The notes beneath the pieces were generated by a model. The model did not search any database, was not told where the DNA came from, and worked only from the letters and a program-made list of their open reading frames with translations. From assembly GCA_963704755.1 (NCBI GenBank), contig OY969938.1:2850001-2882000 (forward strand): a DNA stretch of 32,000 nt. The letters are read 5' to 3'. Position numbers and translations under genes: made by a program. The first letter of the stretch is position 1; every line of letters begins with the position of its first letter. Source of the stretch: an uncultured Chloroflexia bacterium (GTDB lineage Bacteria > Chloroflexota > Anaerolineae > Anaerolineales > Anaerolineaceae). Below are positions 3,354-27,998 of this stretch, piece by piece.

Positions 3354-3695
3354 TTAAGGAATGAGCAAGGCTCTTCCTACGACTTGCTGAGCTTCAACGG
3401 CCTGATGTGCTTTTGCAGCCTCCGCTAATGAATAAGTATAGTCTGTTTTGACCGAAAGCTTTCCTTGTTCAACCCATGAAGTAAAGGCCTGAAAATATTC
3501 CGGCATCTTACTATTGAATTGAGACTTCAATAGTAACTGCTCAGCCCAGCGGGGATGAAACCCGAATTTGATGTGCGTGCGGGGGCGAAGCCCCCGCACG
3601 CACATCAAATTCGGGAACTTCTTAACAGGAGCCTGAGTAGTTACCTTCAATATAGTCTTTGTCCTAACACCAAACTGGCATGCTAAGGTGAACAC
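3354..3695 (-). pseudogene. 3-prime remnant of an MDR-type quinone oxidoreductase/alcohol dehydrogenase, interrupted by element E1
   Basis: The C-terminal ...FQAFTSWVEQGKLSVKTDYTYSLAEAAKAHQAVEAQQVVGRALLIP matches the typical MDR C-terminus. No N-terminal catalytic or Rossmann part is present. 40 codons in the middle are element E1 plus one target repeat. Confidence 0.45.
3533..3644. mobile_element. E-family nested-palindrome MITE-like element E1 (112 bp)
   Basis: Termini GTAACTGCTCAG / CTGAGTAGTTAC. Flanked by a perfect 8-bp direct repeat CTTCAATA (3525-3532 and 3645-3652). Apical 25-bp perfect stem 3561-3585/3591-3615 with loop CGAAG. Confidence 0.7.
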
Positions 3696-3698
3696 TTT

Positions 3699-4130
3699 TT
3701 ATTGCGTCGGTTGATCCAGGTACCCGTAGCCGATATACTTCAAAATCAACCGCGCCTTGTCGCCCAGCAGGTCTTGCTCGTGGGCCAGGATATCCGTGAT
3801 TAATTCGATCAGCGGGGCTTCACCGTCCCAGTTGCCGGTCAAAATCTCGTCCCCCAGGGCCTGGCGAATCTGATTGGCGGTAAAGGCGCACAGCCAGATG
3901 TCATCCACATAGCCGTAGGGCCCTTCCAGACTTTCCGGAATAACGTCGGCCGGCAGGATGAAGTACGATATGGTCACCAACACCAGCGGGCGCAGGTGGA
4001 TGGGCAGGCGGGGATCGTCCAGCAGGTGGGTCAACAGGCGGTACAACGCCGGCGCCTGGTAGATCAGGTCGTCGTGGCGGCCTTCGTAATCAGCGATGTC
4101 TTCCCGGAGAAGGATGTCGAAGTCTTTCAT
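3699..4130 (-). CDS. DUF1232 (YkvA-like) protein
   Basis: Starts at MKDFDILL with an AGGAGA RBS about 7 nt upstream. Motif YFILPADVIPESLEGPYGYVDDIW is typical of DUF1232. Lies 20 nt downstream of the helicase stop, so probably the same operon. The longer 202-aa ORF extension overlaps the helicase gene. Confidence 0.7.
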   Translation of the reverse strand: MKDFDILLREDIADYEGRHDDLIYQAPALYRLLTHLLDDPRLPIHLRPLVLVTISYFILPADVIPESLEGPYGYVDDIWLCAFTANQIRQALGDEILTGNWDGEAPLIELITDILAHEQDLLGDKARLILKYIGYGYLDQPTQ

Positions 4131-4150
4131 GCGTTCTCTCCTGAATAGGG

Positions 4151-7100
4151 TCAGGGCGATGGAGTGCCTTCGGAATAAGGGCAGACCTGGTTGAATTCCT
4201 GGCATTGGGCGCAGTAGGAGCGGTTGGGCGGGAAATCTTCGCCTGCGATACGCGCGAACAGGTCTTCCAATTGGGCGGCAGCCCCGGACTTTTGCTGCGG
4301 GTCCCAATCCCAGCTCTCGGCCCGGTCGTCTCCCAGGAAATGGACGGTGGTCCGCGCGACCGGCCGCTCCAGGTCGTTCTCCACCCCGATGGCGTAGATG
4401 GAAAGCTGCAATTTGGCCTGGTCGATCTCTTTGGGCGTCGAGCGCGACGTTTTGAAATCGACGATCTCCAGCCTTTCTTCCCCGTCCCGGCGGACCAGGT
4501 CGATCTTGCCCTGCAAGACCTGTTCTCCAAAGGCAGCCGAGAAGGGCGTCTCCGCCTGAACGGTCTCGGCCAGGCGCGGGCCGTACTCCTGCAAGTAACA
4601 GCTGAGATGCTGGATGGCATATTTTTTGAACTTTTGCTCCAATTTCGCGGTTGCCTGAGCGGGCAAAAGCCAGTTGGCATCCACCAGGGCCGGCAGGTCT
4701 TCGACCGTGGTGGAATCGCCCTGCAGGGCGCGCCGGTGAATGGCCTCCAGGCAGCGGTGGACGTTGGCGCCATAGTTGACCGGGTCCAGCCAGGGGACGG
4801 CCAGTCCGTACACGACCGAATATTTATAGCGCAGCGGGCATTGCAGATAATAGGCCAGTTGCGAATAGCTGTAGCGCGGGCGCGGCCCCTGCTCGCGGCC
4901 GGCGGCCCTGCTTTCGATCTCCTTGACCTTTTCCTCTGAAAACTCGGCCGCGCCTTGCAGATCGTCGCCGAACATCTCGTGTACAAACGGGCTGGGTCCG
5001 CCGCCGCGTTTGTTGACCACGTCGGCCGTGCTGACGATAAGCAGGTCCTGGGCGCGGGTGGCCGCCACGTAGAACAGCTTGCGCTCGTCCACCAGGTGGG
5101 GGTCGTCCACCTCCGGCTTGCCGCTGGCGCGTAAATCATAGGGGATCTCGTAGGGGTCTTTGCGCCGGGTGGAGGGCAGGCGCCCGCTCATGGCTGCACC
5201 CAGCACGACTACCGGGAACTGCAAGCCCTTGGCCTGGTGGATGGTCATGATGCGCACACAGTCGTCGATCTCGGGCACGGCCGCATCTACGCCGCCCTGG
5301 CGCATCAGGTCCAGGTATTCGCGGAAGGGATAGAAGTTGCGGGTCGAGCCGAACTCATCCCAGGCGGCTACCAACTGGCTGAAGATGCCCAGGTTGGACA
5401 GAGCCGTACGCTTTTCGACCATTTCGAAGCGCCCCAGGCAGCCGGTGATGGACAGCAGCTCGTAGAACACGCCCAGGGCCGAGCCGTGCTCCTGGGCCTG
5501 CACCTTGCGCTTGAGCGCCAGCAGCCGCTGCAGGCGGCGCAGGTCGGCCGGCTCGCGGATGCCGATCTCCCGCCAGCCGGCCTCATCGCTGATTTCGAGC
5601 AGGTTGCCCTTGTGGGCCTTCAAAGCGTCGCAGGCGGTTTCGCTCAATCCCACCAGCGGGTCGCGGACATATTTATCGCCCCATTCTTTGGAGGAGCCCA
5701 GGAAATTGAACAGGTCGTAAAGCTGGGCGATCTCGTCTTTATCGAACAAGGTGGCATCGCCGAGCACCTGATTGGGGATGCCCTCATCATTGAGCGCCGT
5801 TTGGTAGGCCTCAGCATAATTCTTGACGCTGCGCAGCAGGACGACTACCTCGCCGTATTGGTGGATACGCCCGGAGGCGCGCAGCCGGCCGAGCATACGG
5901 GCCACCGCGGCGGCTTCTTCGGGAGCGGAGTGTTCATACACCAGGAAGATGTCGTTACCCGGGCCGCGGTAGGACACCAGGTCCTTCTCGAAGCGGGCCG
6001 GGTTGTTGTGGGCGATGACTTCCAGCGAATGGCGCACCACCGGAGTGTAACTGCGGAAATTATCCACCAGGGTGACCTGGTGAACATTGGCGTAATGGTC
6101 CCCGAAGTCGTAAAGATTTTTTACCGTGGCCCCGCGGAAGCGGTAAATGCCCTGGTCGTCGTCGCCGACCACGGTCAGGGCACACCCATCCCCGGCCAGC
6201 AGGCGGATGATGCGTTCCTGGGCGGCGTTGGTGTCCTGGTATTCGTCCACCAGGATGAGCGGGTACTGCCGTCGTAGATCCGCCACGATAGCGGGGTTCT
6301 TTTCCAACAGGTCGAGCGCGTGGCGCTGCAGGAAGGCGAAATCGACCAGCGAATGGTCCAGGAGGTGCCGGCAGTACAGCCGGTAGGCCTCGGCGACGAC
6401 TTCTTTTTCCTTCCACAGGTCGATTTCTTTGGCATCGCAGTTGGATTGGCTTTTCTGGCACCACTCTTCCAGCCTGTCCGGCTCGACCAGCTCCTCGGTA
6501 GCCAGGTTGAAGGTGCGCAGTACCGCGTTGAAGAAGTCCTGCGGACGGCCTTTGACGATCGTATCCAGCCCGAAAGCTTTGCGGTTGGAATAGACCTGCA
6601 GAAACTGGCCGTTCTGGTCCAGGATGCGGTAGCCGTGCGGCAATGCCGATTGGGCGGCGTAGCGGCGCAGCAGGTTGGCGCAAAAGGCATGCACGGTGGA
6701 GACCTGCATGGCCTCGACGTTGACCTCGGGCAGCTTTTTCTGGATGCGGTCTTTTAATTCCAGGGCGGCCTTTTCGGTAAAGGTGACCGCCAGAACCTGG
6801 CCCGGCTGGGCCTGGCCGGACCGCACCAGGTAAGCCACTCGCCGGGCGATCACTTCGGTCTTGCCCGAGCCGGGCCCGGCGATGATCATCAGCGGCCCAC
6901 CCTGGTGCAGAACCGCTTCGCGCTGCGGGGGTTTGAGACCCGTGAGAATCTCTTCCAGCAGGCCGGGCAGCAGGCTGTCCAATCCCTTGTGGGCGGCCGG
7001 GTTGTCCGGGTCGAGCGCCAGGACCTTGCGTATGCAAACTACCCGCTCCGGGTCCGTATCGACGGCGCCCGAAAGCCACAGCCAGGCCTGGATGTTGTGC

Positions 7101-7195
7101 GGATCTTGCTGGACGGCCTGGTTGAGCAAGCTGCGTGCCATGGTTTTGTCCCCAGCTTTAAGCGCCTGAATACCTTTATTGGTTAACTCATCCAT
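4151..7195 (-). CDS. TPR / UvrD-PcrA-type SF1 helicase / Cas4-AddB-like PD-(D/E)XK nuclease fusion protein
   Basis: 1014 aa. N-terminal TPR-like ~75 aa. Walker A AGPGSGKT. Motif II LILVDEYQDTN. C-terminal nuclease: LQCPLRY (Cys1), GKIDLV, EIVDFKT, QLSIYA, and terminal CAQCQEFNQVCPY (a 4-Cys cluster pattern). Confidence 0.85.
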   Translation of the reverse strand: MDELTNKGIQALKAGDKTMARSLLNQAVQQDPHNIQAWLWLSGAVDTDPERVVCIRKVLALDPDNPAAHKGLDSLLPGLLEEILTGLKPPQREAVLHQGGPLMIIAGPGSGKTEVIARRVAYLVRSGQAQPGQVLAVTFTEKAALELKDRIQKKLPEVNVEAMQVSTVHAFCANLLRRYAAQSALPHGYRILDQNGQFLQVYSNRKAFGLDTIVKGRPQDFFNAVLRTFNLATEELVEPDRLEEWCQKSQSNCDAKEIDLWKEKEVVAEAYRLYCRHLLDHSLVDFAFLQRHALDLLEKNPAIVADLRRQYPLILVDEYQDTNAAQERIIRLLAGDGCALTVVGDDDQGIYRFRGATVKNLYDFGDHYANVHQVTLVDNFRSYTPVVRHSLEVIAHNNPARFEKDLVSYRGPGNDIFLVYEHSAPEEAAAVARMLGRLRASGRIHQYGEVVVLLRSVKNYAEAYQTALNDEGIPNQVLGDATLFDKDEIAQLYDLFNFLGSSKEWGDKYVRDPLVGLSETACDALKAHKGNLLEISDEAGWREIGIREPADLRRLQRLLALKRKVQAQEHGSALGVFYELLSITGCLGRFEMVEKRTALSNLGIFSQLVAAWDEFGSTRNFYPFREYLDLMRQGGVDAAVPEIDDCVRIMTIHQAKGLQFPVVVLGAAMSGRLPSTRRKDPYEIPYDLRASGKPEVDDPHLVDERKLFYVAATRAQDLLIVSTADVVNKRGGGPSPFVHEMFGDDLQGAAEFSEEKVKEIESRAAGREQGPRPRYSYSQLAYYLQCPLRYKYSVVYGLAVPWLDPVNYGANVHRCLEAIHRRALQGDSTTVEDLPALVDANWLLPAQATAKLEQKFKKYAIQHLSCYLQEYGPRLAETVQAETPFSAAFGEQVLQGKIDLVRRDGEERLEIVDFKTSRSTPKEIDQAKLQLSIYAIGVENDLERPVARTTVHFLGDDRAESWDWDPQQKSGAAAQLEDLFARIAGEDFPPNRSYCAQCQEFNQVCPYSEGTPSP

Positions 7196-7280
7196 AATGC
7201 AACCCCTGAACTCTTTCCGCGGCGCGCCTGGAATGGGGTTTGTCGCGCGAAGCCATTTTATCCCCCGGTTTCTTTATGTC

Positions 7281-7309
7281 ACTATAGCAGAATTGTGAGG
7301 AAAAGGCAA
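7281..7309 (-). promoter_or_regulatory. Candidate sigma-70-type promoter for the helicase operon
   Basis: On the minus strand TTGCCT (7304-7309), a 17-nt spacer, then TATAGT (7281-7286), about 85 nt upstream of the ATG at 7195. Confidence 0.3.
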
Positions 7310-7512
7310 CGAGGGGTAGAGTTGAACGAGGAGATGAGGGCATGAGGGAAGAGGAGAAGAAAGGGGAGCGCTTGTGGCTTTCTTATGTTCCTTTGACAAA
7401 AATCAGGAAGATTGTCATCCAGCCGTGGTCGAACTTTGCCTGAAGGGCATGCTGCGTACCAGGGCGTGGCGACTTCGGCCGCGTTGTCGTTGATATTGCG
7501 AACCCTTTCGAA

Positions 7513-7540
7513 TTGACAGGTTGAAATTTTGAAGTATAAT
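7513..7540 (+). promoter_or_regulatory. Near-consensus sigma-70 promoter
   Basis: TTGACA (7513-7518), a 16-nt spacer, then TATAAT (7535-7540), 53 nt upstream of the ATG at 7593. Confidence 0.55.
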
Positions 7541-7543
7541 TTT

Positions 7544-7576
7544 TTATTAATAAACCGTCTGACGGTTTATTAATAA
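7544..7576. promoter_or_regulatory. 33-bp perfect palindrome between the -10 box and the RBS (candidate operator or 5-prime-UTR hairpin)
   Basis: TTATTAATAAACCGTC t GACGGTTTATTAATAA: 16-bp arms with a 1-nt centre. Confidence 0.5.
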
Positions 7577-7592
7577 AAAAGAAAGGTGCATA

Positions 7593-8039
7593 ATGTCTCA
7601 AACTTTTGCAGAAATACTTATTCTTATCCCGACCACCCTGTCGGCCGGCTTTTTATTGGCCGTTTCGGGCGTGATCCAGAAGGTGATGAATGATCTGGAT
7701 GAAGCTACATTCAAGCGTTTCTTGACCCTGCTGGAACGGCACGCGATGCACTCCCCCTTTGCACTTTCGGTGTCGCTGTTGACCTCGATCGCTGCGGTAC
7801 CTTATTGGATCATTTACCGGTTCCATAACGTCTGGTTTACGGCCGGGCTGGTGGTTTGGTTTGTAGGCGCCACGGTCAGCAAGATTCTTAACATGCCCAT
7901 ATACAAAAAAGTAAATGAACTTGGCGATGGTCAGGTGGAGGAACTAAAAGAAGAACGCCGGAAGTTGCAGACCGCCAACGATGTGCGCGCTTGGCTTAAC
8001 TTTATTTCGGTGATCCTCATGGTAATTGGGTTGGCCTGA
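7593..8039 (+). CDS. Small integral membrane protein (DUF1772-like)
   Basis: 148 aa with four hydrophobic segments and KILNMPIYKKVN resembling the DUF1772 N-x-P-x-N region. RBS GAAAGG upstream. Visibly AT-richer than the surrounding genes. Confidence 0.5.
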   Translation: MSQTFAEILILIPTTLSAGFLLAVSGVIQKVMNDLDEATFKRFLTLLERHAMHSPFALSVSLLTSIAAVPYWIIYRFHNVWFTAGLVVWFVGATVSKILNMPIYKKVNELGDGQVEELKEERRKLQTANDVRAWLNFISVILMVIGLA

Positions 8040-8109
8040 AAGTTGGCGTTTGGTGAGAACCGGCACCTGATCTGTAAGTAGATTAAAATGGGTAAACCGG
8101 TTTTAGATT

Positions 8110-8221
8110 GTATTTGCTCAGTCTAATGGATAAGAGATACGAAATTGGAGTGTTCGCGGGAGCCTCGCCCCCGTCAACACTCCAATTTCAAGACCTTCTT
8201 GATATTTGTCTGAGTTGTTAC
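8110..8221. mobile_element. E-family element E2 (112 bp)
   Basis: Termini GTATTTGCTCAG / CTGAGTTGTTAC. 14-bp perfect stem gaaattggagtgtt (8141-8154) / aacactccaatttc (8176-8189). The 21-nt apex resembles a decayed E1 apex (gcggg.gc...gcccccg). Confidence 0.6.
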
Positions 8222-8249
8222 AATTGATTTACACATTTTTGGAGAAGCA

Positions 8250-8969
8250 ATGGCGCGCACTATCAAGGAAGAGGAATATCAGGCCAGGCGGAACGAAATC
8301 CTGGACTTCGCCCTACGCTTGATTTACACCAAGGGTTACGAAAAAATGACCATTCAGGACATCCTGAATGGTCTGCAAATTTCCAGGGGAGCCCTGTACC
8401 ATTATTTCAATTCAAAAAAGGCGCTGCTCGAGGCCCTGGTGGACCGCATGGGACAGACTGCGCAGCAGAGCGTCCTTCCTATCATACAGGACCCGGACCT
8501 GTCTGCCCTGCAAAAATTCCAACGCTATTTTGAAATCTCGGCCAACTGGAAAAGCTTGCAAAAGGAGTTTATTTTGACCCTTTTGCCAATGTGGTTCAGC
8601 GACGAAAATGCCTTTATCCGCCAGAAAATGACCAGTGAAACGCTGGCCCACACCTCGCCATTGCTCGAGGCTATGATCCGCCAGGGCGTTGAGGAAAAGG
8701 TTTTCACCACCCGTTACCCGCAGCAGTCGGCGGTGATTATCGCCGGGATCTTTCTCACCTTTGCGGAGGTAATCGTTGGACGGCTGCTCGCCCCACAACC
8801 GGATGGGGCCGGCTCGGGCGACCTCCAAAATACCCTGAACGCCTATTCCGACGCCATCGAGAGGATACTCGGAGCCCCCGCGGGCTCACTCAAATTCTTT
8901 GAGGTTGCCGATTTCCAGGGTTGGCTGGTCGCCTCTGCGCCGGAACCCGGGCAGGCAAGTGGCTTCTAG
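8250..8969 (+). CDS. TetR/AcrR-family transcriptional regulator
   Basis: N-terminal HTH: YEKMTIQDILNGLQISRGALYHYFNSKKALLEALV. 239 aa. Confidence 0.85.
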   Translation: MARTIKEEEYQARRNEILDFALRLIYTKGYEKMTIQDILNGLQISRGALYHYFNSKKALLEALVDRMGQTAQQSVLPIIQDPDLSALQKFQRYFEISANWKSLQKEFILTLLPMWFSDENAFIRQKMTSETLAHTSPLLEAMIRQGVEEKVFTTRYPQQSAVIIAGIFLTFAEVIVGRLLAPQPDGAGSGDLQNTLNAYSDAIERILGAPAGSLKFFEVADFQGWLVASAPEPGQASGF

Positions 8970-8987
8970 CGATTAGCTGTTAGCTTT
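8967..8987 (+). repeat. TAGCNNN heptamer array (3 units) starting at the TetR stop codon
   Basis: TAGCGAT TAGCTGT TAGCTTT. TAG at 8967, 8974 and 8981, one in each frame. Confidence 0.6.
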
Positions 8988-9042
8988 CAGGATACGGTCG
9001 GGGCATGGCTTGATTGGTCCGGCGGTATCCAAAAGGCGAAAG

Positions 9043-9099
9043 GTACTACTCATATCCCTGAAAAAAATCAGTTTTTCCTTCGTTAGGCTGAGCAGTTAC
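9043..9099. mobile_element. E-family short form E3 (57 bp, no long apical hairpin)
   Basis: Termini GTACTACTCAT / CTGAGCAGTTAC. The right inner spacer ccttcgttagg resembles cttcttaacagg of E1. Only a 4-bp ctga/tcag mini-hairpin lies inside. Confidence 0.45.
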
Positions 9100-9127
9100 C
9101 AACGAAAAGTGGTTTTTGGACAGACCA

Positions 9128-11476
9128 CTAGCGAGTTATGATGGGGATATAAATATCATAGCTTGGGGGTGGGGTTGGCGGCGGGGTGGGGATGGAGCTG
9201 GGCGACCAATCGAATTCGACGTAATCGAAATCGGCCTGGAGTGGGTTGTTCTGCCACTCATTAATCAGGTGAACGCCGGTGTACACGGTGCTGGCCGCAT
9301 TAAAGCGGATGCTTCCTGCTAGAAGCCAATCATTATTATCGCGGCTGTACCAGGCACTAAAGTTTTGATTGCTGCGCACGATTTTCAGGTACACGTCCTG
9401 GGCGTTCAAGGGAAGGTTCCCCAGGTCGGTATAGTTGCCATTCACGCTGTAGATGAACCGTAAATCGCCGCCGGTCTTTAGCTCCAGGCGGATATAGTTA
9501 TCGTCGTCCTGCCAGACCAGCAAGCCGGCGCCCTGATACTCTTGCGCCACCGGTAAAAGGTGAACATGGGTCGATACCAGAAATGTCTTCCCGACCGGCT
9601 GCAGGAGGCGAGGAGCATTTTTGTTGGAATACAAATCGTGACCGCCGGTGTAGGTCATCAGGCGTAATGAGCCGGGGTCGGCGGTCAAACTGTAGTTCGA
9701 GTCGGCCTGGGGGTCGGTCCATGACCAGCGCAGGTCGAGCATTTCGGCATCGAAGGTATCATTGAAACCGGACGGATACCAGGCAGCGCTCCATAAGGTC
9801 AGGTAAACCAGGTCGTCGTTTTCGAAAGTCTCGGCCCAACTATTATATTGGCGATCCAGGTATTCATAGGTCACTCTTAATCCCAACTGGCTCAAATATT
9901 TGGGGACCATGCCGGTCTGGGCATTCTGAGGGATGGCCAGTTGAACCAGGTAGCCGGTGCCATAGCTGCGGGCATAACGGCCAATGTCGTCTGTTACAAG
10001 CAGCCGCTCGAAGGGATAATTGGAATCATCATCCCACATCGGGTATCCTTTTGCGGCAATCATAGCTTCGCTGCTATCCCAGATACGCGCCTTGCCTACG
10101 ATAGATGGATCGTTGGGGTTGGAATAACTTGGGTCGATTGCCACCTCATAATTATCGCTACCGTGAAACCATCCATCCGCGTTGGCATCGATCTTGAAGT
10201 GTATGCTTGCATATCGATCGACGATAAACATCAGGTAGAAGAAATTGCTATCCCAATTGGCGTAGATTGTGGCGTTGAGCGGTGCGCTGGACGTATTCGT
10301 TTCGTCGGTGAGCACGTCCCAGTCATCCGGGTTGCCGTCGAGTGCGTGGGTTTTTTCGGGTATCTGAGTGTTGACGGCGTACAAAGGTTCGGCATCATTG
10401 CTGTCTAAGGCAAAATCCCCATCTAAATCAACCTCATTCAAGCCGGTATTCTTGAAAAAGCCAGACATAATTTCGTTCAGGTCCGAAAACCCATCTCCTT
10501 CCGAATCGTTGGAAGCCGTTGAACTGCCGAGAGCCTCTTCTGTAATCGGCAACATACCCTCGTCGGGTACGCCATCTCCATCTGCGTCCGGGGCTTCCTG
10601 AATATTCCCCCAGGGAGCGCGAAGCACCAGCCAGTCGTTCAGCGGCCAAATTCTCATTTCGTATACCCAGTAGCTCCAATCCTCTCCAAACCTGCCGGGA
10701 TAATCCCAAGGACGGTCCGCGTGGAAATAATCCGGGTAGCCGCTGCTATCCAGCATGAAATCAATGGTATGCTGCATTTCATGAGGAAAAGCCGTCGAAA
10801 ATTGTGGGGTGCCTGAGGCCTGGAAAATCGGGTTCTCGGTGATCCCCGTCGTTCCCAGTTGCCAGGCAATAAGCCCGCCGAGCCCGCCATAAGCGGCGGG
10901 CAATGTGTAATTGTTATGAGCCCACAGATAGTTAATGCTATCGTACTGGTCTCTCAGCACCCCACGGTTCAAAAGATCCATTTCGACCGAGATTCCATCG
11001 TTGTCGTTGTCGACTGGATTGAGCCAGTAGCCTCCATTTTCCAGCTGGTTGAACTCACTGATATCTTTGTAGTCGTCGATAACCAGGATCGTCAGGTCGA
11101 TATAGAACTTGAGGCTAGACTGGCGCCATACGAAAGTGGCTGTATCGTGAATGTGCTGTTCGATAAGGCTGACATCGGTGGAATTTAGGGTGCCGGCAGC
11201 CGTGTCCGGGTAAATCACCACCAGCGTTTCTAGCCTGGTATAGGCCGTGTTTCCACTGCTCACCAGGTAAGCAGACTGAGGCGCCTGCAGAGGTGGAAAC
11301 AAAGCGGTGTTCTGGATTTGGGTAAATCCCTGGGGCTGCTCCAGGGGGGAGTCATAGACTGCGTAGATGTAGGGTGGTTCAACGTTCGAGGCGACTACGT
11401 TTTTGGCCGGCGCAAATTGAAAACCGGCTAACAGGCTGAGTGCAAGAACAAAGTGAAGGCATTTGGGCAGTGACAT
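9128..11476 (-). CDS. Secreted multidomain protein: HExxH metallopeptidase-like region, TSP3-type Ca-binding repeats, CBM9/DOMON-like region, ConA/LamG-like C-terminal domain
   Basis: Signal peptide MSLPKCLHFVLALSLLAGFQFAPA. FPHEMQHTIDF. DADGDGVPDE, DSEGDGFSDLNE and DLDGDFALDSNDAEP. C-terminal LamG-like block (GAGLLVWQDDDNYIRLEL...). ATG 11476 is preferred (AAGGAG 7 nt upstream) over TTG 11500. Confidence 0.7.
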   Translation of the reverse strand: MSLPKCLHFVLALSLLAGFQFAPAKNVVASNVEPPYIYAVYDSPLEQPQGFTQIQNTALFPPLQAPQSAYLVSSGNTAYTRLETLVVIYPDTAAGTLNSTDVSLIEQHIHDTATFVWRQSSLKFYIDLTILVIDDYKDISEFNQLENGGYWLNPVDNDNDGISVEMDLLNRGVLRDQYDSINYLWAHNNYTLPAAYGGLGGLIAWQLGTTGITENPIFQASGTPQFSTAFPHEMQHTIDFMLDSSGYPDYFHADRPWDYPGRFGEDWSYWVYEMRIWPLNDWLVLRAPWGNIQEAPDADGDGVPDEGMLPITEEALGSSTASNDSEGDGFSDLNEIMSGFFKNTGLNEVDLDGDFALDSNDAEPLYAVNTQIPEKTHALDGNPDDWDVLTDETNTSSAPLNATIYANWDSNFFYLMFIVDRYASIHFKIDANADGWFHGSDNYEVAIDPSYSNPNDPSIVGKARIWDSSEAMIAAKGYPMWDDDSNYPFERLLVTDDIGRYARSYGTGYLVQLAIPQNAQTGMVPKYLSQLGLRVTYEYLDRQYNSWAETFENDDLVYLTLWSAAWYPSGFNDTFDAEMLDLRWSWTDPQADSNYSLTADPGSLRLMTYTGGHDLYSNKNAPRLLQPVGKTFLVSTHVHLLPVAQEYQGAGLLVWQDDDNYIRLELKTGGDLRFIYSVNGNYTDLGNLPLNAQDVYLKIVRSNQNFSAWYSRDNNDWLLAGSIRFNAASTVYTGVHLINEWQNNPLQADFDYVEFDWSPSSIPTPPPTPPPSYDIYIPIITR

Positions 11477-11691
11477 CCTGGTGCTCCTTAGCCGAGACAA
11501 AACACCAATTCATTGGCTGGTTGTGAAACGATTGATTTGTATGAATCGATTCACTGAAATCTTGTGCGACGAAGGATATATAAATGCAAGATCACAACGC
11601 CGCGTTTAATTCAGGCTTCGGTATTGCAAAACCCCGCTAAGAAAATCCAACCTGTAATTTAAAAAGGAGATCTTTCCCCGCTGAATAATTT

Positions 11692-11816
11692 TAATTATAA
11701 CGTGAATTTGGGATAAAAGAAAAGAGAGGTAATTTGAGTGTGTTTTTATTCGCGGCGCAGCCGCCACGAATAAAAACACACTCAAAAACTCTTATTCCGA
11801 ATCGACATTAATTATA
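11692..11816. repeat. E-like nested palindrome E4 (different outer arms)
   Basis: Perfect 20-bp stem tttgagtgtgtttttattcg (11733-11752) / cgaataaaaacacactcaaa (11767-11786) with an inner gcggc-gca-gccgc tip. Imperfect outer inverted repeat taattataacgtgaatttggg / ccgaatcgacattaattata. Confidence 0.5.
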
Positions 11817-11905
11817 GCTAAATTAAGGTTAAAAATCAATGTGCAAAGGTATTGAAAAACGTCCTGCGTTAAAACCAAATTCTTCACCTCAAAAGCCGGA
11901 AAGAT

Positions 11906-12112
11906 TCAACCGTTTGAAGAATAGGTATCGGCAAGAAAAAACGTTTTGCAGGAAGGAAATTCACTGCAAACCAGGTAATCTTCGCCAATGTGTTCTCCGC
12001 GAACAGCTCTACGCCGTTCGAGCGGCGCACCACATTTAGGACAGCGCATGTTTTCGGCCGGAATAGAAGGCTTATCTGGTTCTTTTTGTTCGCTCACATC
12101 TTCGTTATTCAA
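11906..12112 (-). CDS. Topoisomerase-type C4 zinc-finger ORF, in frame with the upstream NERD ORF
   Basis: CPKCGAPLERRRAVRGEHIGEDYLVCSEFPSCK is the zf-C4_Topoisom pattern. The frame is open all the way up to the TGA at 12203-12205 that ends the NERD ORF. Confidence 0.5.
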   Translation of the reverse strand: MNNEDVSEQKEPDKPSIPAENMRCPKCGAPLERRRAVRGEHIGEDYLVCSEFPSCKTFFLADTYSSNG

Positions 12113-12202
12113 CCGGGCGATGATCCGCCTCTGGTTTTCCCATATTTTGAGGTTGTTGTAGCTGCGCTGAACCGGCTTATGCAGAAAATTCAGCAGGAAC
12201 CT

Positions 12203-12823
12203 TCAATTCATTACCCGTACCCCCTTGATCGGCGGCCCATATTCTACAAAAGCGTTCGTAAACACAACGACAGGCGTGATCCAGGGGCTTAGACCCGTAA
12301 CAGCCTTGACTTGTTCTTTTACCCAATAAGAATTGCTCAAGGCTTGTTTTATAAAATCTTTTTCGGTCACCTGGCCGTTTAGCAGGATTTTGTTATCTTG
12401 TAAAGTTACTTTTCCCCAATGGGATTTGGTTTCGAGCAGGTAAATACCATTCTGTTGGCTGATAACCAGGTGATCGATATTTCCATGTGGGCTTTCGATA
12501 TCGTTGAGGACCACATAAGAATCGTCGAGGCCGTCCAACAGATTGTCCACCTGCTCTTCGGCTTTGGCGCCTCGCTCGGCGCGATAGACCGTTTTCATCT
12601 GCCGGCGAGAATGGTCATCGGCGAGTTTCAAAATATAAACTGCCAGAATAAACAAGCCGAAATACCACCCGACGGGAATAGCAAGCTTTGCTTGATTCAA
12701 TAGCAAAAACAAGATAATTAGTGCTATTCCGACGCCAAAGATTTCGATCCCGCAGCCCGACCAACGCCGTTTTTCGGCCATTTTGTAGGTTGAGTATCCG
12801 GCTGATCCATATTTCTTGGCCAT
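12203..12823 (-). CDS. NERD (nuclease-related domain) protein with two N-terminal TM helices
   Basis: RGAKAEEQVDNLL...VLNDIESPHGNIDHLVISQQNGIYLLETKSHWG is the canonical NERD core. AT-rich relative to its neighbours. Confidence 0.75.
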   Translation of the reverse strand: MAKKYGSAGYSTYKMAEKRRWSGCGIEIFGVGIALIILFLLLNQAKLAIPVGWYFGLFILAVYILKLADDHSRRQMKTVYRAERGAKAEEQVDNLLDGLDDSYVVLNDIESPHGNIDHLVISQQNGIYLLETKSHWGKVTLQDNKILLNGQVTEKDFIKQALSNSYWVKEQVKAVTGLSPWITPVVVFTNAFVEYGPPIKGVRVMN

Positions 12824-12894
12824 ACCTTACATCATATTCATTTTGAATTTGGGCTTCTATAAAAATTGTTTGCACCTGCATTACAATGCTTTGA

Positions 12895-13002
12895 GTTACC
12901 CCTCAGACTAGTTCGGAAATTAGGGGTGTTTTATTGTTTTTCGCGTGCTTCGCACGCGAAAAACAATAAAACACCCCTCTTTGGGGTTAGCAGAGTAGTT
13001 AC
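12895..13002. mobile_element. E-family element E5 (108 bp, opposite orientation)
   Basis: Termini GTTACCCCTCAG / CAGAGTAGTTAC. Perfect 26-bp stem 12922-12947/12953-12978. Loop CTTCG, the reverse complement of the CGAAG loop of E1 and E8. Confidence 0.6.
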
Positions 13003-13085
13003 GCTTAGGAAACAAAAAGTGCGGTTTAATCGTCCTATAGTTGTATTCCGAAAATTTTAAAATGATGTATTAATGGAGACAAACA

Positions 13086-14222
13086 TTGACTGTAAACCAT
13101 AAATTCCTGTCTTTATTCGTGACAATGAGCTTATTGTTGGTCTTGATGGCCGCCTGTGCGGCCCAGCCCCAGGCAACTGGGACAACTTTACCGGCCACCC
13201 AACCGCCTGCGGATACTACCCAGCCCACAACCTTGCCGGCTCCGGCCGCCACGGCTACCAGCATTCCCGGACTCAGCGAGGATGTCTTGAAAAATGCGAC
13301 CTACGCTTCTCTGGATGCCGAATCACCGGAATACCAGGGCGGCGGCACGATGCAACTGGTGGATGGCGGCTATACCATCAAGGACCCCAGCGGCACTCTG
13401 CCCGATTACCAGGTGACCTACCTGCAAAGCGCCTCCGGTGACCTGAACGGCGACGGCGTGCCGGATGCAGTGGTGGTCCTGGCGGCCAACCCGGGCGGCT
13501 CGGGCACTTTTGTATACCTGCTGCCGGCTATCAACCAGGACGGCAAAGTGGAAAATACCAGCAGCACCTTCCTGGGCGACCGGGTCCAGATCCAAAGCCT
13601 GACCATCGCGGATGGCGCCGTCCACCTGGACATGCTGGTCGCCGGCCCGGATGACCCCCTGTGCTGCCCGTCTCAGCCCGCCAGCCAGACCTACGTCCTC
13701 AAGGACGGCCGATTGCTGACCCAGGCGGAGGCCGCGGTAGCGCCTTTGGCCGATCAGGCGGTGACTGCCTTGAAGAATCAGGATATGGCTGCCCTGGCCC
13801 AGTTGGTTCAGCCGGACGCCGGCCTGCGCTTTTCGCCCTACGCCAACGTAAACCAGAGCGACCTGGCCTTCACCCCCGCTCAACTCCAGGGTCTGTTGAG
13901 CGATCCGACCGTATACGCCTGGGGCGCCTATGACGGCTCGGGGGAACCGATCGCGCTGGCCTTCAGTGATTACTTTACTAAATTTGTGTACAGTGGCGAT
14001 TTTGCCTCGGCCGCCCAGGTCAGTTTTGACCACCCGCTCGGCAGCGGCAACACCATCGACAACAGCCAGGAGTTTTACCCGGGCGCCGTGATCGTCGAGT
14101 ATTACCTGCCCGGCACCGCCGCCAACGGCTACATGGATTGGCAGAGCCTGCGCCTGGTTTTCAGCCAGCAAGGCGAGAACTGGTATCTGGCCGGCATCAT
14201 CCACGCCCAATGGACGGTTTAG
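13086..14222 (+). CDS. Lipoprotein of unknown function
   Basis: TTG start 7 nt after GGAG. Signal peptide with lipobox LVLMAAC. Thr/Pro-rich linker. GDLNGDGVPDAVVV (FG-GAP/VCBS-like motif). Confidence 0.65.
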   Translation: MTVNHKFLSLFVTMSLLLVLMAACAAQPQATGTTLPATQPPADTTQPTTLPAPAATATSIPGLSEDVLKNATYASLDAESPEYQGGGTMQLVDGGYTIKDPSGTLPDYQVTYLQSASGDLNGDGVPDAVVVLAANPGGSGTFVYLLPAINQDGKVENTSSTFLGDRVQIQSLTIADGAVHLDMLVAGPDDPLCCPSQPASQTYVLKDGRLLTQAEAAVAPLADQAVTALKNQDMAALAQLVQPDAGLRFSPYANVNQSDLAFTPAQLQGLLSDPTVYAWGAYDGSGEPIALAFSDYFTKFVYSGDFASAAQVSFDHPLGSGNTIDNSQEFYPGAVIVEYYLPGTAANGYMDWQSLRLVFSQQGENWYLAGIIHAQWTV

Positions 14223-14232
14223 AAGTGATATA

Positions 14233-16336: not shown

Positions 16337-16450
16337 GATAACCAAATGACCTGACGGGAAAGCCATTCCCGGACTTGAGGTGATTGCAGAGGCGAAGTAC
16401 CTGCAATCACCTCAAGTCCGGGAGCTCGCCACCATAAGCCTGAGTAGTAC
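16337..16450. mobile_element. E-family element E7 (left terminus decayed)
   Basis: Right terminus CTGAGTAGTAC (16440-16450). Perfect 22-bp stem 16368-16389/16401-16422. Loop aggcgaagtac contains GCGAAG. The stem is homologous to that of E8. Confidence 0.5.
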
Positions 16451-16501
16451 CAAAAGTCTTTTTCTCACCGGCCGGAGCAGTTACAATAAATCTCGTAGCC
16501 T

Positions 16502-17203
16502 ATGGAAGAAAATTACCGTATCTTACTGATCGAAGACAATTCCGCCGTGGCGCGCAGCCTGTTGGACGGCCTGGAGCGCGAAGGTTTCGAGACCGTCTGG
16601 AAGCCCACCGGCCACGAGGGCCTGGAGGCCGCAGCGACCGGGCGGGTCCACCTGGTGTTGTTAGACGTGCGCTTGCCGGACGGCTCCGGATTCGACGTGT
16701 GCCGCGAGCTGCGCCTGCGCGGAATGCACCAGCCGGTTATTATTTTGACCGTGCAGCAGGACGAGATCGACAAGGTGCTTGGGTTGGAGATCGGCGCGGA
16801 CGATTACGTGACCAAGCCCTTCGGTTTGCGTGAGCTGCTCTCGCGCATCCGTGCCCAGTTGCGCCGGGCCTACGGCGAGTTTGCCGGGGCCGGCAGCCAG
16901 GTCACCCTGGTCGGCGACCTGGTGGTGGACTATACCCGCAGCCAGGTACTGCGCGACGACCGCCCGATCAACCTCAGCCCGACCGAGTTCCGCCTGTTCA
17001 CCTTCCTGGTCCGCGAGCGCGGGCGGGCAGTGACCCGCAGCCAGATCATCGAAGCCGTGTGGGGCTATGCCGCTGATCTGGAGAGCGAGCGGGCCGTCAA
17101 CGTGCACATCCGCCGCCTGCGCGAGAAAGTCGAGCCAGACCCGGCCTCCCCGACCCTGATTTTGACGGTGCCGGGAGTCGGCTATCGCCTGGCCGGCCGC
17201 TAG
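16502..17203 (+). CDS. OmpR/PhoB-family response regulator
   Basis: Receiver domain (LLIEDN...LVLLDVRLPDGSG...KP). Winged-helix output domain (LSPTEFRLFTFL...VPGVGYRL). Confidence 0.9.
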   Translation: MEENYRILLIEDNSAVARSLLDGLEREGFETVWKPTGHEGLEAAATGRVHLVLLDVRLPDGSGFDVCRELRLRGMHQPVIILTVQQDEIDKVLGLEIGADDYVTKPFGLRELLSRIRAQLRRAYGEFAGAGSQVTLVGDLVVDYTRSQVLRDDRPINLSPTEFRLFTFLVRERGRAVTRSQIIEAVWGYAADLESERAVNVHIRRLREKVEPDPASPTLILTVPGVGYRLAGR

Positions 17204-17219
17204 GGGGAAAGGCTGCGCT

Positions 17220-17247
17220 TAGCGGTTAGCTTTTAGCGGTTAGCCTA
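17220..17247 (+). repeat. TAGCNNN heptamer array (4 units), 17 nt after the response-regulator stop
   Basis: TAGCGGT TAGCTTT TAGCGGT TAGCCTA. TAG at 17220, 17227, 17234 and 17241. Confidence 0.65.
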
Positions 17248-17256
17248 CGGGTCGTG

Positions 17257-17448
17257 AGCCACTCTCTCGTTTCTGGGAGAGGGGTTGGGGTGAGGGCGAA
17301 GCTCTGGGCTTTCACGGCGCCGGCCGGGAAAGAGCCCTAATCTACCGTTTGGTGATATTTGCGAACGGTGGGTTACGGGCAGGGCCGGGACCTCGCGCCG
17401 GCTTGTGATACACCGGCGTGATCAATGGGCCCTCCACCCACCTTACAG
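17257..17448 (+). repeat. R-family repeat copy R4 (~190 bp)
   Basis: Head agccactctctcgtttctgggagaggggttggggtgagggcga (left stem arm decayed) ... ggtgggttacgggca ... tail cccaccttacag. Collinear with R5 over its whole length. Confidence 0.7.
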
Positions 17449-17543: not shown

Positions 17544-17620
17544 ATAGGGGAGGAATCGGCTCAGACCCAGTCCATAAAGGGTCGAAAGTAGGTGAAATCA
17601 CATCCCGGATCGCCTTTCTA

Positions 17621-17812
17621 AGCCCCTCTCCCGCTTCTGGGAGAGGGGTTGGGGTGAGGGCGAAGCCCTGGGCTATCACGGCGCCGGCCGGGAAAGAGCC
17701 CTAATCCACCGTTTGGTGGTATTGGGAATGGTGGGTTACGGGCAAGGTTGGGGATGTCAAGCCGGCCGGTGATCCGCCGGCGCTATCGACGAGCCCTGCA
17801 CCCACCCTACAG
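17621..17812 (+). repeat. R-family repeat copy R5 (~190 bp)
   Basis: Head agcccctctcccgcttctgggagaggggttggggtgagggcga. Tail gcacccaccctacag, running directly into the heptamer array. Confidence 0.7.
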
Positions 17813-17844
17813 GCTAACAGCTAACAGCTAACAGCTACCCGCTA
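17807..17844 (-). repeat. TAGCNNN heptamer array (6 TAGs, minus-strand sense) starting at the comEC stop codon
   Basis: Minus-strand reading: TAGCGGG, TAGCTGT x3, TAGCCTG, TAGG. The first TAG (17842-17844) is the comEC stop. Confidence 0.7.
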
Positions 17845-20124
17845 CCGCTGGCCGGCAATGATCCACATTTGTCCCCCATCGCTGACTACCTCGATACGCC
17901 CGAGCGCGGCGGTCGATAGCCAGTTCTGCGGCAGCGCCTGGGCGGGCTGCCCGCTGACCAGCACGGCCAGGGGGCGCATGCGCTGCCAATCCACGAGGGC
18001 CCTCTCCCGGAGCTGATCGGCATCCAGGACCAGTATGCAGCCGTCCGCTTTGACTGCGCCAGGCGGCAGGTCGCCTGGCCAGACCAGGCACAGGTTGCCA
18101 TAATCCAGGCGATAGGCGGCCAGCGATTTGCCGGAGCCGATCACCCGCACCTTCACCCCCTCGTCCACCTGCAAGGCGTCGCCGGGGGCCAGCGCCAGCG
18201 GAAGCGCACCCAGCCGGCCGGCAGCTTCCTGTAACCGCTCGGCCGCGGCTTTGTCCGGTGGGGGTAAGGCCCAAAAAACCTGGTCGGCCGGGGTGCGTTC
18301 GATCAGCCCGGCCAGGCTTTGCAGGTCATCGGCGGAAGTACTGGTGATCAGCAAACCATCCAGGCGGCGATCGACCAGGCTCATCTCGCGGCCCAGGGCG
18401 GAAGAAAGGGCATTGGCTCCGCCGGCCCCACCCAGCAGGAGTTGGTTGCCGCCCGGGGTGGTCAACAGCGCGGCCGGCGAGCCGGCCAGATCGAACAGGG
18501 CCAGGTGCAGGCGTCCATCCGGGCGGTGCAAAGCCACGTTCCAGGCCAATAAAGTGACCAACCCCAGGCCGGTCAGCACCGCAGCCGGTTTGATGCGGCT
18601 GCTCACGGCCGCCAGCCAGGATTTGGCCGTCATCAGGCCGCCCAAAACCAGGTAATAGCCGGCGGCGAACCAGCCACTGACCGTGCCGATACTCACTGCC
18701 CCACCGGGAATACGGGCGCACCATTCCACCGCGCGGATGGTATAGGCGGTCAATGGCCAGGACAGCGCCTGGCCCAGTGTGGTCGAAAAAGACCCTACCA
18801 GCAGGGCGGCCCCGCCCAATTCCATCACCAGCGGCTGGACGGGCAGCACCAACGGGTTGGCGAGCAGCATGCTGAAGGAAAGCCGGCCAAAATGGACCAG
18901 CGTGACCGGCAGGGTGGTCACCTGGGCGGCCAGGGTAAACAGGACGTTTTCACCCACCGGCCCGGCCAGCCGGTGGGCTGCCTTGGGTGAGAGCCAGTGG
19001 GCCGCCAGGCGCTCGAAGCCGGATTGCAGCGGATCGGCAAACCAGACCAGGCCCAGGGTGGCGGTGAACGAAAGCTGGAAGCTGACGTCCCACAGCAGCC
19101 AGGGATTGAAGATGCACATCAGCATGGCGCTGCCGGCCAGGGGCGTCGTCCCGGCCGAGGATCTCCCGATCAGGCGCCCAAAGACGGCCAGCCCGCTCAT
19201 AATAGCGGCTCGCACCACGGCCGGGTTGGCCCCCACCAGCACTGTGTAGGTAGCAATGGCCAAAACGGCCAGCAAGGCCGTCCAGCCGCGCGGGAAAAAA
19301 CGGCCGAAGAAGCCTACAAAAAGCGCGCACAACACGCTCATGTTGAATCCGGAAATGGCGATGATGTGGGCCGTACCGGTATCCTGGAAGGCTTTCTCCA
19401 GGCTCTCCGGCAAATCATTTTCCAGCCCAAGCAGGATGCCGGAGAGCAAACCGGCCTCAGGTTGGGGCAGCATGGTCGTGATGCGCCGGTACGCGGCCTG
19501 GCGCAGCCCATAAATGGCGGCCATGACCCGGCTGCCGGACGTGCCTTCCAGCCGGTGGGTGGAGGGATATAACAGGTAGGTGTAAACCCCATGCTGGGCC
19601 AGGTAATCCTGGTAGGAAAAATCTTCGCCGGAAGGTGGGGTCACCGGTTTGCCCCACAGGCGGATGCGCTGGCCGTACTGCCAGTTACCGCCGGGGGAAA
19701 GGCGCACCAGCGCCACCCCTTCGACCGGGATCACCCGCCCGGTGCTTTCCAGGGTGATCGATTCGACCCGGACTCGCAGTTGCACAGCGTTTTCGCGCCG
19801 GTCCGGGTCGGCGGCGATCCAGCCGATCAGCTCGGCCTGTCCGGAATCGTTGTAATAGGCCAGGTCGGATGGGCCCCAATTTGGCTGGGCATGCTGCCAG
19901 CACAGTGCCCCTGCGAACAGTGCCGCCAGCAATACCCCCACCGCCAGCGGAATTTTAGCCCTCAGGATCCGGTAGCGGGCAAAACGGCCGGCCCAGAATC
20001 GTTCGCCCAACGCCAGGGCCAGGCTCAACCCGGCCAGCAGCAGCCAGGCGGACAGCGGCAGGCGCGTGAATGCCCCCAGCCCGATCCCTGCCAGGAAGGC
20101 CAGCGAAAACCACAGCAGCGGCAC
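17842..20124 (-). CDS. comEC: DNA internalisation competence protein ComEC/Rec2
   Basis: 760 aa. N-terminal DUF4131-like TM/OB region, polytopic competence domain (HIIAISGFNMSVL...), C-terminal metallo-beta-lactamase-like region. Confidence 0.85.
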   Translation of the reverse strand: MPLLWFSLAFLAGIGLGAFTRLPLSAWLLLAGLSLALALGERFWAGRFARYRILRAKIPLAVGVLLAALFAGALCWQHAQPNWGPSDLAYYNDSGQAELIGWIAADPDRRENAVQLRVRVESITLESTGRVIPVEGVALVRLSPGGNWQYGQRIRLWGKPVTPPSGEDFSYQDYLAQHGVYTYLLYPSTHRLEGTSGSRVMAAIYGLRQAAYRRITTMLPQPEAGLLSGILLGLENDLPESLEKAFQDTGTAHIIAISGFNMSVLCALFVGFFGRFFPRGWTALLAVLAIATYTVLVGANPAVVRAAIMSGLAVFGRLIGRSSAGTTPLAGSAMLMCIFNPWLLWDVSFQLSFTATLGLVWFADPLQSGFERLAAHWLSPKAAHRLAGPVGENVLFTLAAQVTTLPVTLVHFGRLSFSMLLANPLVLPVQPLVMELGGAALLVGSFSTTLGQALSWPLTAYTIRAVEWCARIPGGAVSIGTVSGWFAAGYYLVLGGLMTAKSWLAAVSSRIKPAAVLTGLGLVTLLAWNVALHRPDGRLHLALFDLAGSPAALLTTPGGNQLLLGGAGGANALSSALGREMSLVDRRLDGLLITSTSADDLQSLAGLIERTPADQVFWALPPPDKAAAERLQEAAGRLGALPLALAPGDALQVDEGVKVRVIGSGKSLAAYRLDYGNLCLVWPGDLPPGAVKADGCILVLDADQLRERALVDWQRMRPLAVLVSGQPAQALPQNWLSTAALGRIEVVSDGGQMWIIAGQR

Positions 20125-23554: not shown

Positions 23555-23605
23555 AATACAACCAGAGGTTGCCCCAAATCATTTTGGGCAACCTCTGGTT
23601 GTATT
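23555..23605. terminator. Long hairpin between convergent genes (candidate bidirectional terminator)
   Basis: aatacaaccagaggttgcccc-aaa / tttgggcaacctctggttgtatt with a one-base bulge. Followed by a second hairpin gccgggaagg / ccttccggc at 23611-23637. No E-type termini. Confidence 0.5.
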
Positions 23606-27004: not shown

Positions 27005-27039
27005 TTTCCTGGGTTTTGTTTGCGCCAACCTGGCCGGGG

Positions 27040-27786
27040 CTAACAAGACCTCAGCCCAAAAAGTTTATCGTCGATTTCCAGGTAGATGCGCTTGTTGATC
27101 TTGCCTTTGCTCTTATAATCCACCACGCGCACTTTGCCGACCTCGCTTGTGTTGGCCACGTGGGTGCCGCCGTCGGCTTGCAGGTCCAGGCCCACCAGCT
27201 CGACAGTGCGGATCTCGCTGATCTCGGGTGGGAGCAGGTTAATCTTGGTGCGGATCAGGTCGGGGATGGCGAACGCCTCGGCACGGGGCAGAATGCGCAC
27301 CTGCACCGGGTGGGCATTCTGGACTTCCTGGTTGACCACCGTTTCGATGACCGCGACCAGCTCTTTCGAGAGGTTCTCGAATTCGAAGTCCATACGTCCT
27401 TTGAGCGGTTCCATGTCCCCGCCGGTGACCAGGGCGCCATAATCGCGAAAAACGGTCCCGCACAAGATGTGCATGGCCGTATGGGTGCGCATCAGCTTGT
27501 AGCGGCGTTCCCAATCGATCACGCCGTGCAGGTGGGTCCCGATGGAGGGCAGAGGGGCTTCTTCCGCCAGGCTGTGCCAGATCCCATCCGGTGCTTTGCG
27601 AGCGCGCAGCAGGGTCCAGTCCTCGCCGTCGTAGGAGACCAGGCCCAGGTCGTATGGCTGGCCGCCTCCGCCCGGGTAAAAGGCGGTGCGGTCCAGGAGA
27701 ATAGCGTGGTTGGCTGCATCCACCGCTGTCACGCTGGCATCGAATTCTTTTAAATAACTGTCGGTTTGATAGAGAAGCTCGGTCAT
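27040..27786 (-). CDS. alaX: Alanyl-tRNA editing protein, AlaX-M type
   Basis: HTAMHIL and GGTHV zinc/editing motifs. 248 aa. N-terminal beta-barrel plus editing domain architecture. Confidence 0.85.
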   Translation of the reverse strand: MTELLYQTDSYLKEFDASVTAVDAANHAILLDRTAFYPGGGGQPYDLGLVSYDGEDWTLLRARKAPDGIWHSLAEEAPLPSIGTHLHGVIDWERRYKLMRTHTAMHILCGTVFRDYGALVTGGDMEPLKGRMDFEFENLSKELVAVIETVVNQEVQNAHPVQVRILPRAEAFAIPDLIRTKINLLPPEISEIRTVELVGLDLQADGGTHVANTSEVGKVRVVDYKSKGKINKRIYLEIDDKLFGLRSC

Positions 27787-27886
27787 ATCAGGCGCTTTCC
27801 AGGGGAATTTTCAATAATTATATTGCCATTCGGGCCTGATATTGACCACAGATGGACACAGATGCACACAGATAAAAACTTTTTTT

Positions 27887-27998
27887 GTAACTACTCAGTC
27901 AGACAAGAAAGAGCCCTGAAGTTGAGGTATTTGTGCAAACGAAGCTTGCACAAATACCTCAACTTCAGGGACTTTTTATCTAGAGTCTGAGTAGCTAC
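27887..27998. mobile_element. E-family element E8 (112 bp)
   Basis: Termini GTAACTACTCAG / CTGAGTAGCTAC. Perfect 25-bp stem 27914-27938/27946-27970. Loop aCGAAGc. Confidence 0.7.

Follow-up and report, generated by a model that had tools for sequence, protein, structure and literature searches.

The stretch of DNA analysed here (the window: 32,000 nt of contig OY969938.1, from an uncultured Chloroflexia bacterium) carries six copies of a short repeat, the E elements, five of them about 110 bp long (E1, E2, E5, E7, and E8) and one of 57 bp (E3), together with one orphan terminus. The elements span 57-115 bp and have no coding capacity, and very probably they are non-coding miniature transposons bounded by inverted repeats (MITEs) whose ends are those recognised by the DDE transposase of the IS66 family's ISBst12 group, which has a single open reading frame (ORF), and whose internal palindrome seems to be kept at the level of DNA. 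A sequence-only reading of the window had already listed these copies, and on re-reading the sequence every one lies where it had been placed, with its termini correctly quoted; this includes the 112-bp length of E1, E2, and E8, the 108-bp inverted E5, the 57-bp short form E3, the decayed left end of E7, in which the left terminus is unrecognisable and the element runs 16337-16451, and the GCGAAGC-type loop, which is present in E1, E5, and E8 and lies inside the loop of E7. Small corrections were needed: E2 keeps its coordinates and length but fits the minus strand better (65 vs 56 bits); E3, though indeed a 57-bp short form, has as its left terminus the degenerate GTACTACTCAT; and the target duplication is exact at E1 alone. 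The copies and their parts are as follows, with bit scores against the family profile.

3525..3532: target-site duplication of E1, left-hand copy (CTTCAATA), read from the sequence
3533..3644, plus strand: E1, full MITE, 112 bp; 80.9 bits
3533-3544 (GTAACTGCTCAG) and 3633-3644 (CTGAGTAGTTAC): terminal repeats of E1
3561-3586 and 3590-3615: palindrome arms of E1, perfect over 26 bp, loop GAA
3645..3652: target-site duplication of E1, right-hand copy (CTTCAATA)
8110..8221, minus strand: E2, MITE with partly decayed termini (GTATTTGCTCAG / CTGAGTTGTTAC), 112 bp; 65.1 bits
9043..9099, plus strand: E3, short form, 57 bp; the profile matches its termini only, E 0.004-0.01
12895..13002, minus strand: E5, inverted MITE, 108 bp; termini with 1-2 mismatches
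12922-12948 and 12952-12978: palindrome of E5, perfect over 27 bp
16337..16451, plus strand: E7, left terminus destroyed, right terminus one base short (CTGAGTAGTACC); 55.3 bits
16367-16389 and 16401-16423: palindrome of E7, perfect over 23 bp
16473..16484, plus strand: orphan right-type terminus CGGAGCAGTTAC, 21 nt past E7; weak profile match
27887..27998, plus strand: E8, full MITE, 112 bp; 69.6 bits
27887-27898 and 27987-27998: terminal repeats of E8
27914-27938 and 27946-27970: palindrome arms of E8, perfect over 25 bp

Inverted termini of 12 nt are present in E1, E2, E5, and E8, and the helix that the termini form is conserved in the alignment of copies. When the window is searched for GTAACTNCTCAG with up to two mismatches, 16 matches are found, compared with 3.56 +/- 1.88 in shuffled sequences, and none of 100 shuffles reaches 16. 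A scan of the window with the family profile recovers exactly E1, E8, E2, E7, E5, and E3 (the last through its ends only), and beyond the six copies and the orphan terminus it gives no convincing match. E3 has a good right terminus (CTGAGCAGTTAC), has lost the palindrome, and yields no structure on DNA folding; it is probably an internal-deletion derivative, and the orphan terminus at 16473-16484 may be what is left of a second element. A lone GTAACTCTTCAG with one mismatch also occurs at 2788-2799, 10 nt after a hairpin at 2728-2778, where it has no partner terminus; about 0.5 such occurrences are expected by chance on our estimate, and it may be meaningless. All six E copies (6/6) are intergenic, and from the ORF map E5 and E7 lie between divergent genes, E3 between convergent genes, and E1, E2, and E8 between co-directional genes, with E2 29 bp upstream of the start of a TetR gene.

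E1 is bounded on both sides by an exact 8-bp direct repeat. The 8-mers that flank E8, CTTTTTTT and CTTTGATT, agree at 6/8 positions and those that flank E2 at 5/8, while the target duplication of E5 has decayed. We infer that the E1 insertion is recent and that most other copies in the window are old, their termini or duplications having decayed: E5 and E2 carry mismatched ends and decayed duplications, the left end of E7 is gone, and so is the core of E3.

The family extends well beyond this genome; the sequence-only reading would have been refuted by a lack of further copies, and many were found in other genomes. One genome per bacterial or archaeal species was scanned for the pattern GTAACTNCTCAG, 70-100 nt, CTGAGNAGNTAC, and at least 119 loci in at least 69 other genomes, from at least nine phyla by their record titles, fit it, compared with about 7 expected by chance on our own calculation. 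This pattern needs near-perfect ends, so that decayed copies and families of other lengths fall outside it. The counts are lower bounds, and the tallies of these copies given here and below are among the matches listed. The genomes belong to Chloroflexota (35), Gammaproteobacteria (16), Desulfobacterota (5), Zetaproteobacteria (4), Elusimicrobiota (3), Nitrospirota (2), and Acidobacteriota, Fibrobacterota, and Armatimonadota (one each), with one unclassified. The 119 loci hold 117 elements with exact termini, 95-124 bp in length with modes at 121 and 112 bp, and these make up several families that share the same ends around mutually unrelated interiors; among the matches listed, the nearest relatives of the window copies are in Anaerolineaceae genomes (L117, L080, L100, and L009). 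Element midpoints fall inside ORFs of at least 150 aa in only 16/117 cases (14%), though such ORFs make up 84% of the bases.

For 114 of the 117 exact-terminus copies there was enough flanking sequence for a test of target-site duplication, and an exact 8-bp direct repeat borders 54/114 of them, rising to 68/114 when one mismatch is allowed. In the same 114 copies a shifted control for 8-bp repeats gave 0, and repeat lengths of 4-7 and 9-12 gave no signal. At these duplicated sites A and T predominate at positions 2-7, and the last base is G or C. Among the MITE loci, no large ORF family stands beside solitary termini and no IS66 transposase motif was found. Among the loci listed, one pair of termini 0.3-8 kb apart has a matching duplication (L071 5827-6834, in a gammaproteobacterial genome); it was considered as a full-length element and set aside, as it consists of nested MITEs without a transposase. 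In the wider region of that locus, 5695-6834, MITEs that share these termini lie next to and inside one another, and extra sequence breaks up the one at 6668-6834. Viral contigs gave no match to the MITE pattern, so carriage by phage is unsupported.

The sequence-only reading had tentatively linked GTAA ends and 8-9 bp repeats to IS66, and this link is right; it can be narrowed to the single-ORF ISBst12 group and to a duplication of exactly 8 bp. A literal text search for the terminus surfaced a report on ISDge4 of Deinococcus geothermalis, an IS66-family element of the ISBst12 group with one 449-aa transposase, for which transposition was observed and which has inverted repeats GTGACTACTCAGCA / GTAACTGCTCAGCA and a direct repeat of 8 bp (PMC12898284). 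One ISBst12-group element is listed for plasmid pHTA426 (PMC8024623), and read directly it is 1635 bp long (L120 14107-15741), with ends GTATCTATTCAGCCC / GTAACTATTCAGCCC and the duplication GACGAGTT. Its single gene, annotated as an 'IS66-like element ISGka4 family transposase', encodes 485 aa that score 334 bits against NCBIfam NF033517 (IS66 family transposase), match the Pfam domains DDE_Tnp_IS66, zf-IS66, and DUF6444, and are 58% identical to a protein named ISBst12. Relatives of this transposase, collected by alignment, define 80 metagenomic loci, and in 71 of them a pair of inverted GTAACTNCTCAG-like ends (at most two mismatches in each) brackets the transposase gene, mostly 1.50-1.61 kb apart. 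Duplications of 8 bp occur in 12 of these loci; many of those that have none are short contigs of 1.5-3 kb, whose flanks we suspect were assembled from different repeat copies. Three full elements that were read directly (L202, L213, and L214) have the same ends and clean duplications, and NCBI gives an Anaerolineales genome as the source of the protein encoded by one 1601-bp full element. Autonomous elements of this type are therefore present in the class to which the host belongs.

Canonical IS66 provides the comparison that makes this link specific. The three-gene element ISEc8 of pO157, obtained by tblastn with an IS66 peptide (a search whose matches were mostly enterobacterial canonical IS66), has in the copy read the ends GTAAGCGTACAGC and an 8-bp duplication ATACCGAT. 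Because these ends differ, the link is to the ISBst12 group and not to canonical IS66: the E ends start with GTAA and continue as the group-specific GTAACTNCTCAG(S)C repeat, not as the canonical GTAAGCG... type. The E elements are derivatives or dependants of the ISBst12 group and not members of it, because they are too short to encode a DDE_Tnp_IS66 transposase. In the full elements sampled, similarity to the MITEs ends after about 14-16 nt, and since nothing similar extends past about 16 nt, an origin by simple internal deletion of one of these sampled insertion sequences (IS) is unsupported.

Inverted ends that match those of an IS, a fixed 8-bp duplication, multiple copies, and no coding capacity together bear out the description of a non-autonomous, MITE-like element in the sequence-only reading, and suggest how such elements might move. 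The only transposition signals would be the terminal inverted repeats of 12-14 bp, GTAACT(A/G)CTCAG(S)(C), to both of which a transposase whose gene lies in another part of the genome, or once did, would bind, so that mobilisation would occur in trans. Insertion would proceed through cuts staggered by 8 bp, with repair of the gaps giving rise to the 8-bp duplication, which is seen in A+T-rich intergenic DNA. The core would not be needed for recognition, because unrelated cores sit between the same ends in other genomes; in the Chloroflexota subfamilies, that of the window included, it is a long perfect DNA palindrome with a 3-nt loop of the GAA/TTC type. Judged from such sequence comparisons, the ends of 12-14 bp appear to be sufficient for recognition by the transposase.

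The palindromic core shows several features that bear on how it is maintained. The inner stems are perfect, with 26 bp in E1, 25 bp in E8, 27 bp in E5, and 23 bp in E7, and E2 is perfect in its basal 14 bp only, with a decayed apex; folded as DNA, E1 has a z-score of -11.7 (-46.1 kcal/mol), E5 of -11.9, and E8 of -10.1. In an alignment of 12 copies of the window subfamily, both-sided changes are seen at 21/36 pairs overall and at 19/23 in the inner helix, where 94.9% of cells are paired; no shuffle attains the observed values, and pairing falls to 33-47% when the partners are slid against each other. G-U pairs are nearly absent from the inner helix, its complementarity being strictly Watson-Crick. 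A related Chloroflexota/Anaerolineae subfamily contains near-identical copies in the same outer orientation in which the loop is GAA in 6 and TTC in 6 (among the matches listed), and two copies on one Brevefilum contig have loops AAA and TTT. In these flip-flop copies the 25-bp arms are perfectly complementary, every variant in one arm being mirrored on the other. The loci in question are listed here.

L004, L029, L031, L054, L058, L060, L070, L078, L084, L096, L104, and L113: loop flip-flop loci
L083:44-144 and L083:998-1099; L011 against L086: further loop flip-flop comparisons

GAA against TTC, like AAA against TTT, means that the loop has been inverted inside a perfect palindrome. The stems of E5 and E7, moreover, are perfect over 27 and 23 bp despite decayed termini or duplications. 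Because pairing is strictly Watson-Crick, the loop flips, and the stems outlast the ends, the sequence pattern favours a palindrome maintained as DNA, possibly through intrastrand template switching or through hairpin-templated correction, more than one kept by selection on an RNA. A more speculative extension of the same three observations, to which we would give only a small chance of being correct, is that the DNA of the MITEs goes through a single-stranded hairpin or cruciform state, or is constantly reshaped by one, in which case the perfect palindromes would not be passive cargo. If this were true, the hairpin or cruciform state could correspond to a template-switching step tied to the still uncharacterised IS66 copy-and-paste transposition, and selection for very stable hairpins with GCGAAGC-type loops would be part of the propagation of the element.

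Several rival explanations have to be set against a MITE with ISBst12-group ends, and the one that deserves most attention, though it is unlikely, is that the cores are kept as RNA hairpins, either as bidirectional intrinsic terminators or as transcript-stabilising stem-loops, which a mobile element carries along or has captured. In the E spacers purines prevail upstream of the stem and T/C downstream of it, a pattern that resembles a bidirectional terminator; stand-alone long perfect hairpins follow stop codons directly at 2728-2778, 14230-14278, and 23555-23605; and the stems of E5 and E7 have stayed perfect after their termini decayed. An intrinsic terminator, however, should have a G+C-rich stem followed immediately by a T run, and a consensus scan of positions 1-17000 lists no E hairpin; for E8, which lies outside that scan, the judgement was made by eye only, and its stem is followed by ACTTTTTAT. 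A terminator would also have no use between divergent genes, where E5 and E7 are located, and the near-zero G-U content is unexpected for a selected RNA, while the flip-flop of the loop is a rearrangement of DNA. MITE families of other phyla that have the same ends contain no such hairpin.

A structured non-coding RNA gene or cis-regulatory RNA, with the conserved ends as its closing helix, would account for the strong covariation of the inner helix, for the ability of the two ends to pair, and for the strongly negative folding z-scores, yet we regard it as very improbable. The sequence-only reading had raised the possibility of a known structured-RNA family, and Rfam gave no match at gathering thresholds, its permissive mode returning only sub-threshold microRNA hairpins (33 bits vs 70-97 needed). 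Neither 8-bp target-site duplications nor ends identical to IS inverted repeats belong to RNA genes; moreover, the cores within the same ends are unrelated across genomes, and both orientations of the elements occur, without any constant relation to the genes beside them. Least probable of all, and barely credible here, is that these are repetitive extragenic palindromic (REP) or REPIN elements spread by a RAYT tyrosine transposase in place of a DDE transposase. Such elements are also intergenic hairpin repeats of about 100 nt in which pairing is kept by compensatory change, and a GTAG lies inside the right terminus of the E elements; but REP/REPIN elements are not known to make a target-site duplication, whereas a strict 8-bp duplication is present here, and a REP sequence as a rule belongs to one genome and the RAYT of that genome, whereas the same termini occur here in at least nine phyla and equal the ends of the ISBst12 group. 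The Y1/HUH transposase domain was found in 0/20 of the window ORFs scanned. Integron attC sites and CRISPR repeats were rejected on sight, since their spacing does not fit, an R'/R'' consensus is missing, and the elements have target duplications.

Several points stand against the reading that the E elements are MITEs with ISBst12-group ends. Within the window the 8-bp duplication is exact only at E1, and no transposase gene was detected there by a domain scan of 20 ORFs and a search for the IS66 transposase motif. No empty site was found for the window copies, none of the fetched loci being orthologous to the window, and in none of the fetched loci, whether MITE loci or transposase loci, do a MITE and a full-length element stand side by side. 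The literature yielded no demonstration that an ISBst12-group transposase mobilises a MITE, and the template-switch account of the palindrome is a reading of the sequence pattern.

The setting of the elements is ordinary chromosome, in which coding DNA has about 60-68% G+C and the spacers 41-50%. Domain matches among the 20 ORFs scanned include a UvrD/PD-(D/E)XK helicase, TetR, a NERD-domain protein, a pyridine nucleotide-disulphide oxidoreductase, a response regulator, ComEC, a histidine kinase, RpoD, YceD, Ham1, an AlaX-like protein, and a PA14-domain protein. The next-best matches of the RpoD sequence, after one at 100%, are in Bellilinea and Anaerolineaceae genomes at 78-84% identity, which places the host among the Anaerolineae.

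Other repeats share the window with the E elements. Eight more hairpins without E termini are perfect or near-perfect, with arms of 19-29 bp and loops of 3-5 nt; those just past stop codons (2728, 14230, and 23555) may be terminators, and the one at 11733 has spacers akin to those of the E family. A 304-bp unit (27837-28140) encloses E8 and the hairpin at 28034-28096 and is bounded by a 40-nt inverted repeat (27837-27876 / 28101-28140) that is 90% complementary and rich in the heptamer CACAGAT; this may be one more small element, with E8 as an insertion in it. A second repeat family is built around CCCCTCTCCC(N6)GGGAGAGGGGTTGGGGTGAGGGCGA, in units of up to 192 nt with 80% identity, and a motif like it occurs between E-type termini in some genomes of other lineages (L010, L049, L095, and L116). 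Heptamer tandem repeats of GCTAACA / GCTACCC and their complement lie at the ends of intergenic regions and adjoin this second family. A 27-nt periodic repeat with 11 copies at 70-93% identity lies within a PA14/GLEYA-domain ORF and is probably a coding repeat.

2728-2778, 7540-7580, 11733-11786, 14230-14278, 16227-16275, 23555-23605, 28034-28096, 28750-28810: hairpins without E termini
2924-3005 (reverse strand), 14279-14396, 14574-14639, 17253-17448, 17617-17812: second repeat family
8969-8990, 14725-14789, 17215-17250, 17813-17856: heptamer tandem repeats
29995-30334: 27-nt periodic repeat, in the ORF at 29948-31909, minus strand

With the assignment to ISBst12-group ends the repeats gain a concrete identity, and annotation pipelines could mask a class that spans uncultured lineages of Chloroflexota, Zetaproteobacteria, Gammaproteobacteria, Desulfobacterota, Elusimicrobiota, Nitrospirota, and others. 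The apparent sufficiency of 12-14 bp would be useful for understanding the poorly understood mechanism of IS66 transposition, and minimal transposon tools might be possible, for example in thermophiles, since ISBst12 relatives are found in Geobacillus and Deinococcus geothermalis. The flip-flop palindromes also constitute a natural data set on the persistence of long perfect palindromes in bacterial chromosomes. As a kind of MITE the E elements are ordinary, and their cross-phylum spread and flip-flop palindromes are the more interesting aspects.

Known systems resemble the E elements to different degrees. The closest is the ISBst12 group itself (ISBst12, ISDge4, and the pHTA426 element), which shares the GTAACTNCTCAG(S)C ends, the 8-bp duplication, and the A+T-rich targets, but whose full elements are 1.5-1.64 kb long with one transposase of about 450-520 aa that has DDE_Tnp_IS66 and zf-IS66 domains, whereas the E elements are 57-115 bp without a gene. 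Canonical IS66, as represented by ISEc8, is alike in its GTAA start, in the frame GTAA.....CAGC, and in the 8-bp duplication, and differs in the middle of the repeat (GTAAGCGTACAGC vs GTAACTACTCAGC) and in its tnpA-tnpB-tnpC organisation of about 2.4 kb. The REPIN/RAYT system is similar in its intergenic hairpin repeats of about 100 nt with maintained pairing, but its elements are as a rule host-specific and are not known to make a target-site duplication, whereas E elements have an 8-bp duplication and the cross-phylum ends of an IS with a DDE transposase. Other bacterial MITEs linked to an IS include RUP (IS630), MITEAba12, and the Correia elements. MITECca01 has been tied to IS982 (PMC9769881), and our search, which covered the full text of papers, found MITEs tied to IS982, a tentative link to IS5, and none for IS66/ISBst12. 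The E elements are like these other MITEs in being short and non-coding, with IS-derived terminal inverted repeats, a fixed target-site duplication, many intergenic copies, and a hairpin; they differ in their IS66/ISBst12 parent, in the unrelated cores that the same ends enclose across phyla, and in the perfect palindromes with flip-flop loops that are found in Chloroflexota.

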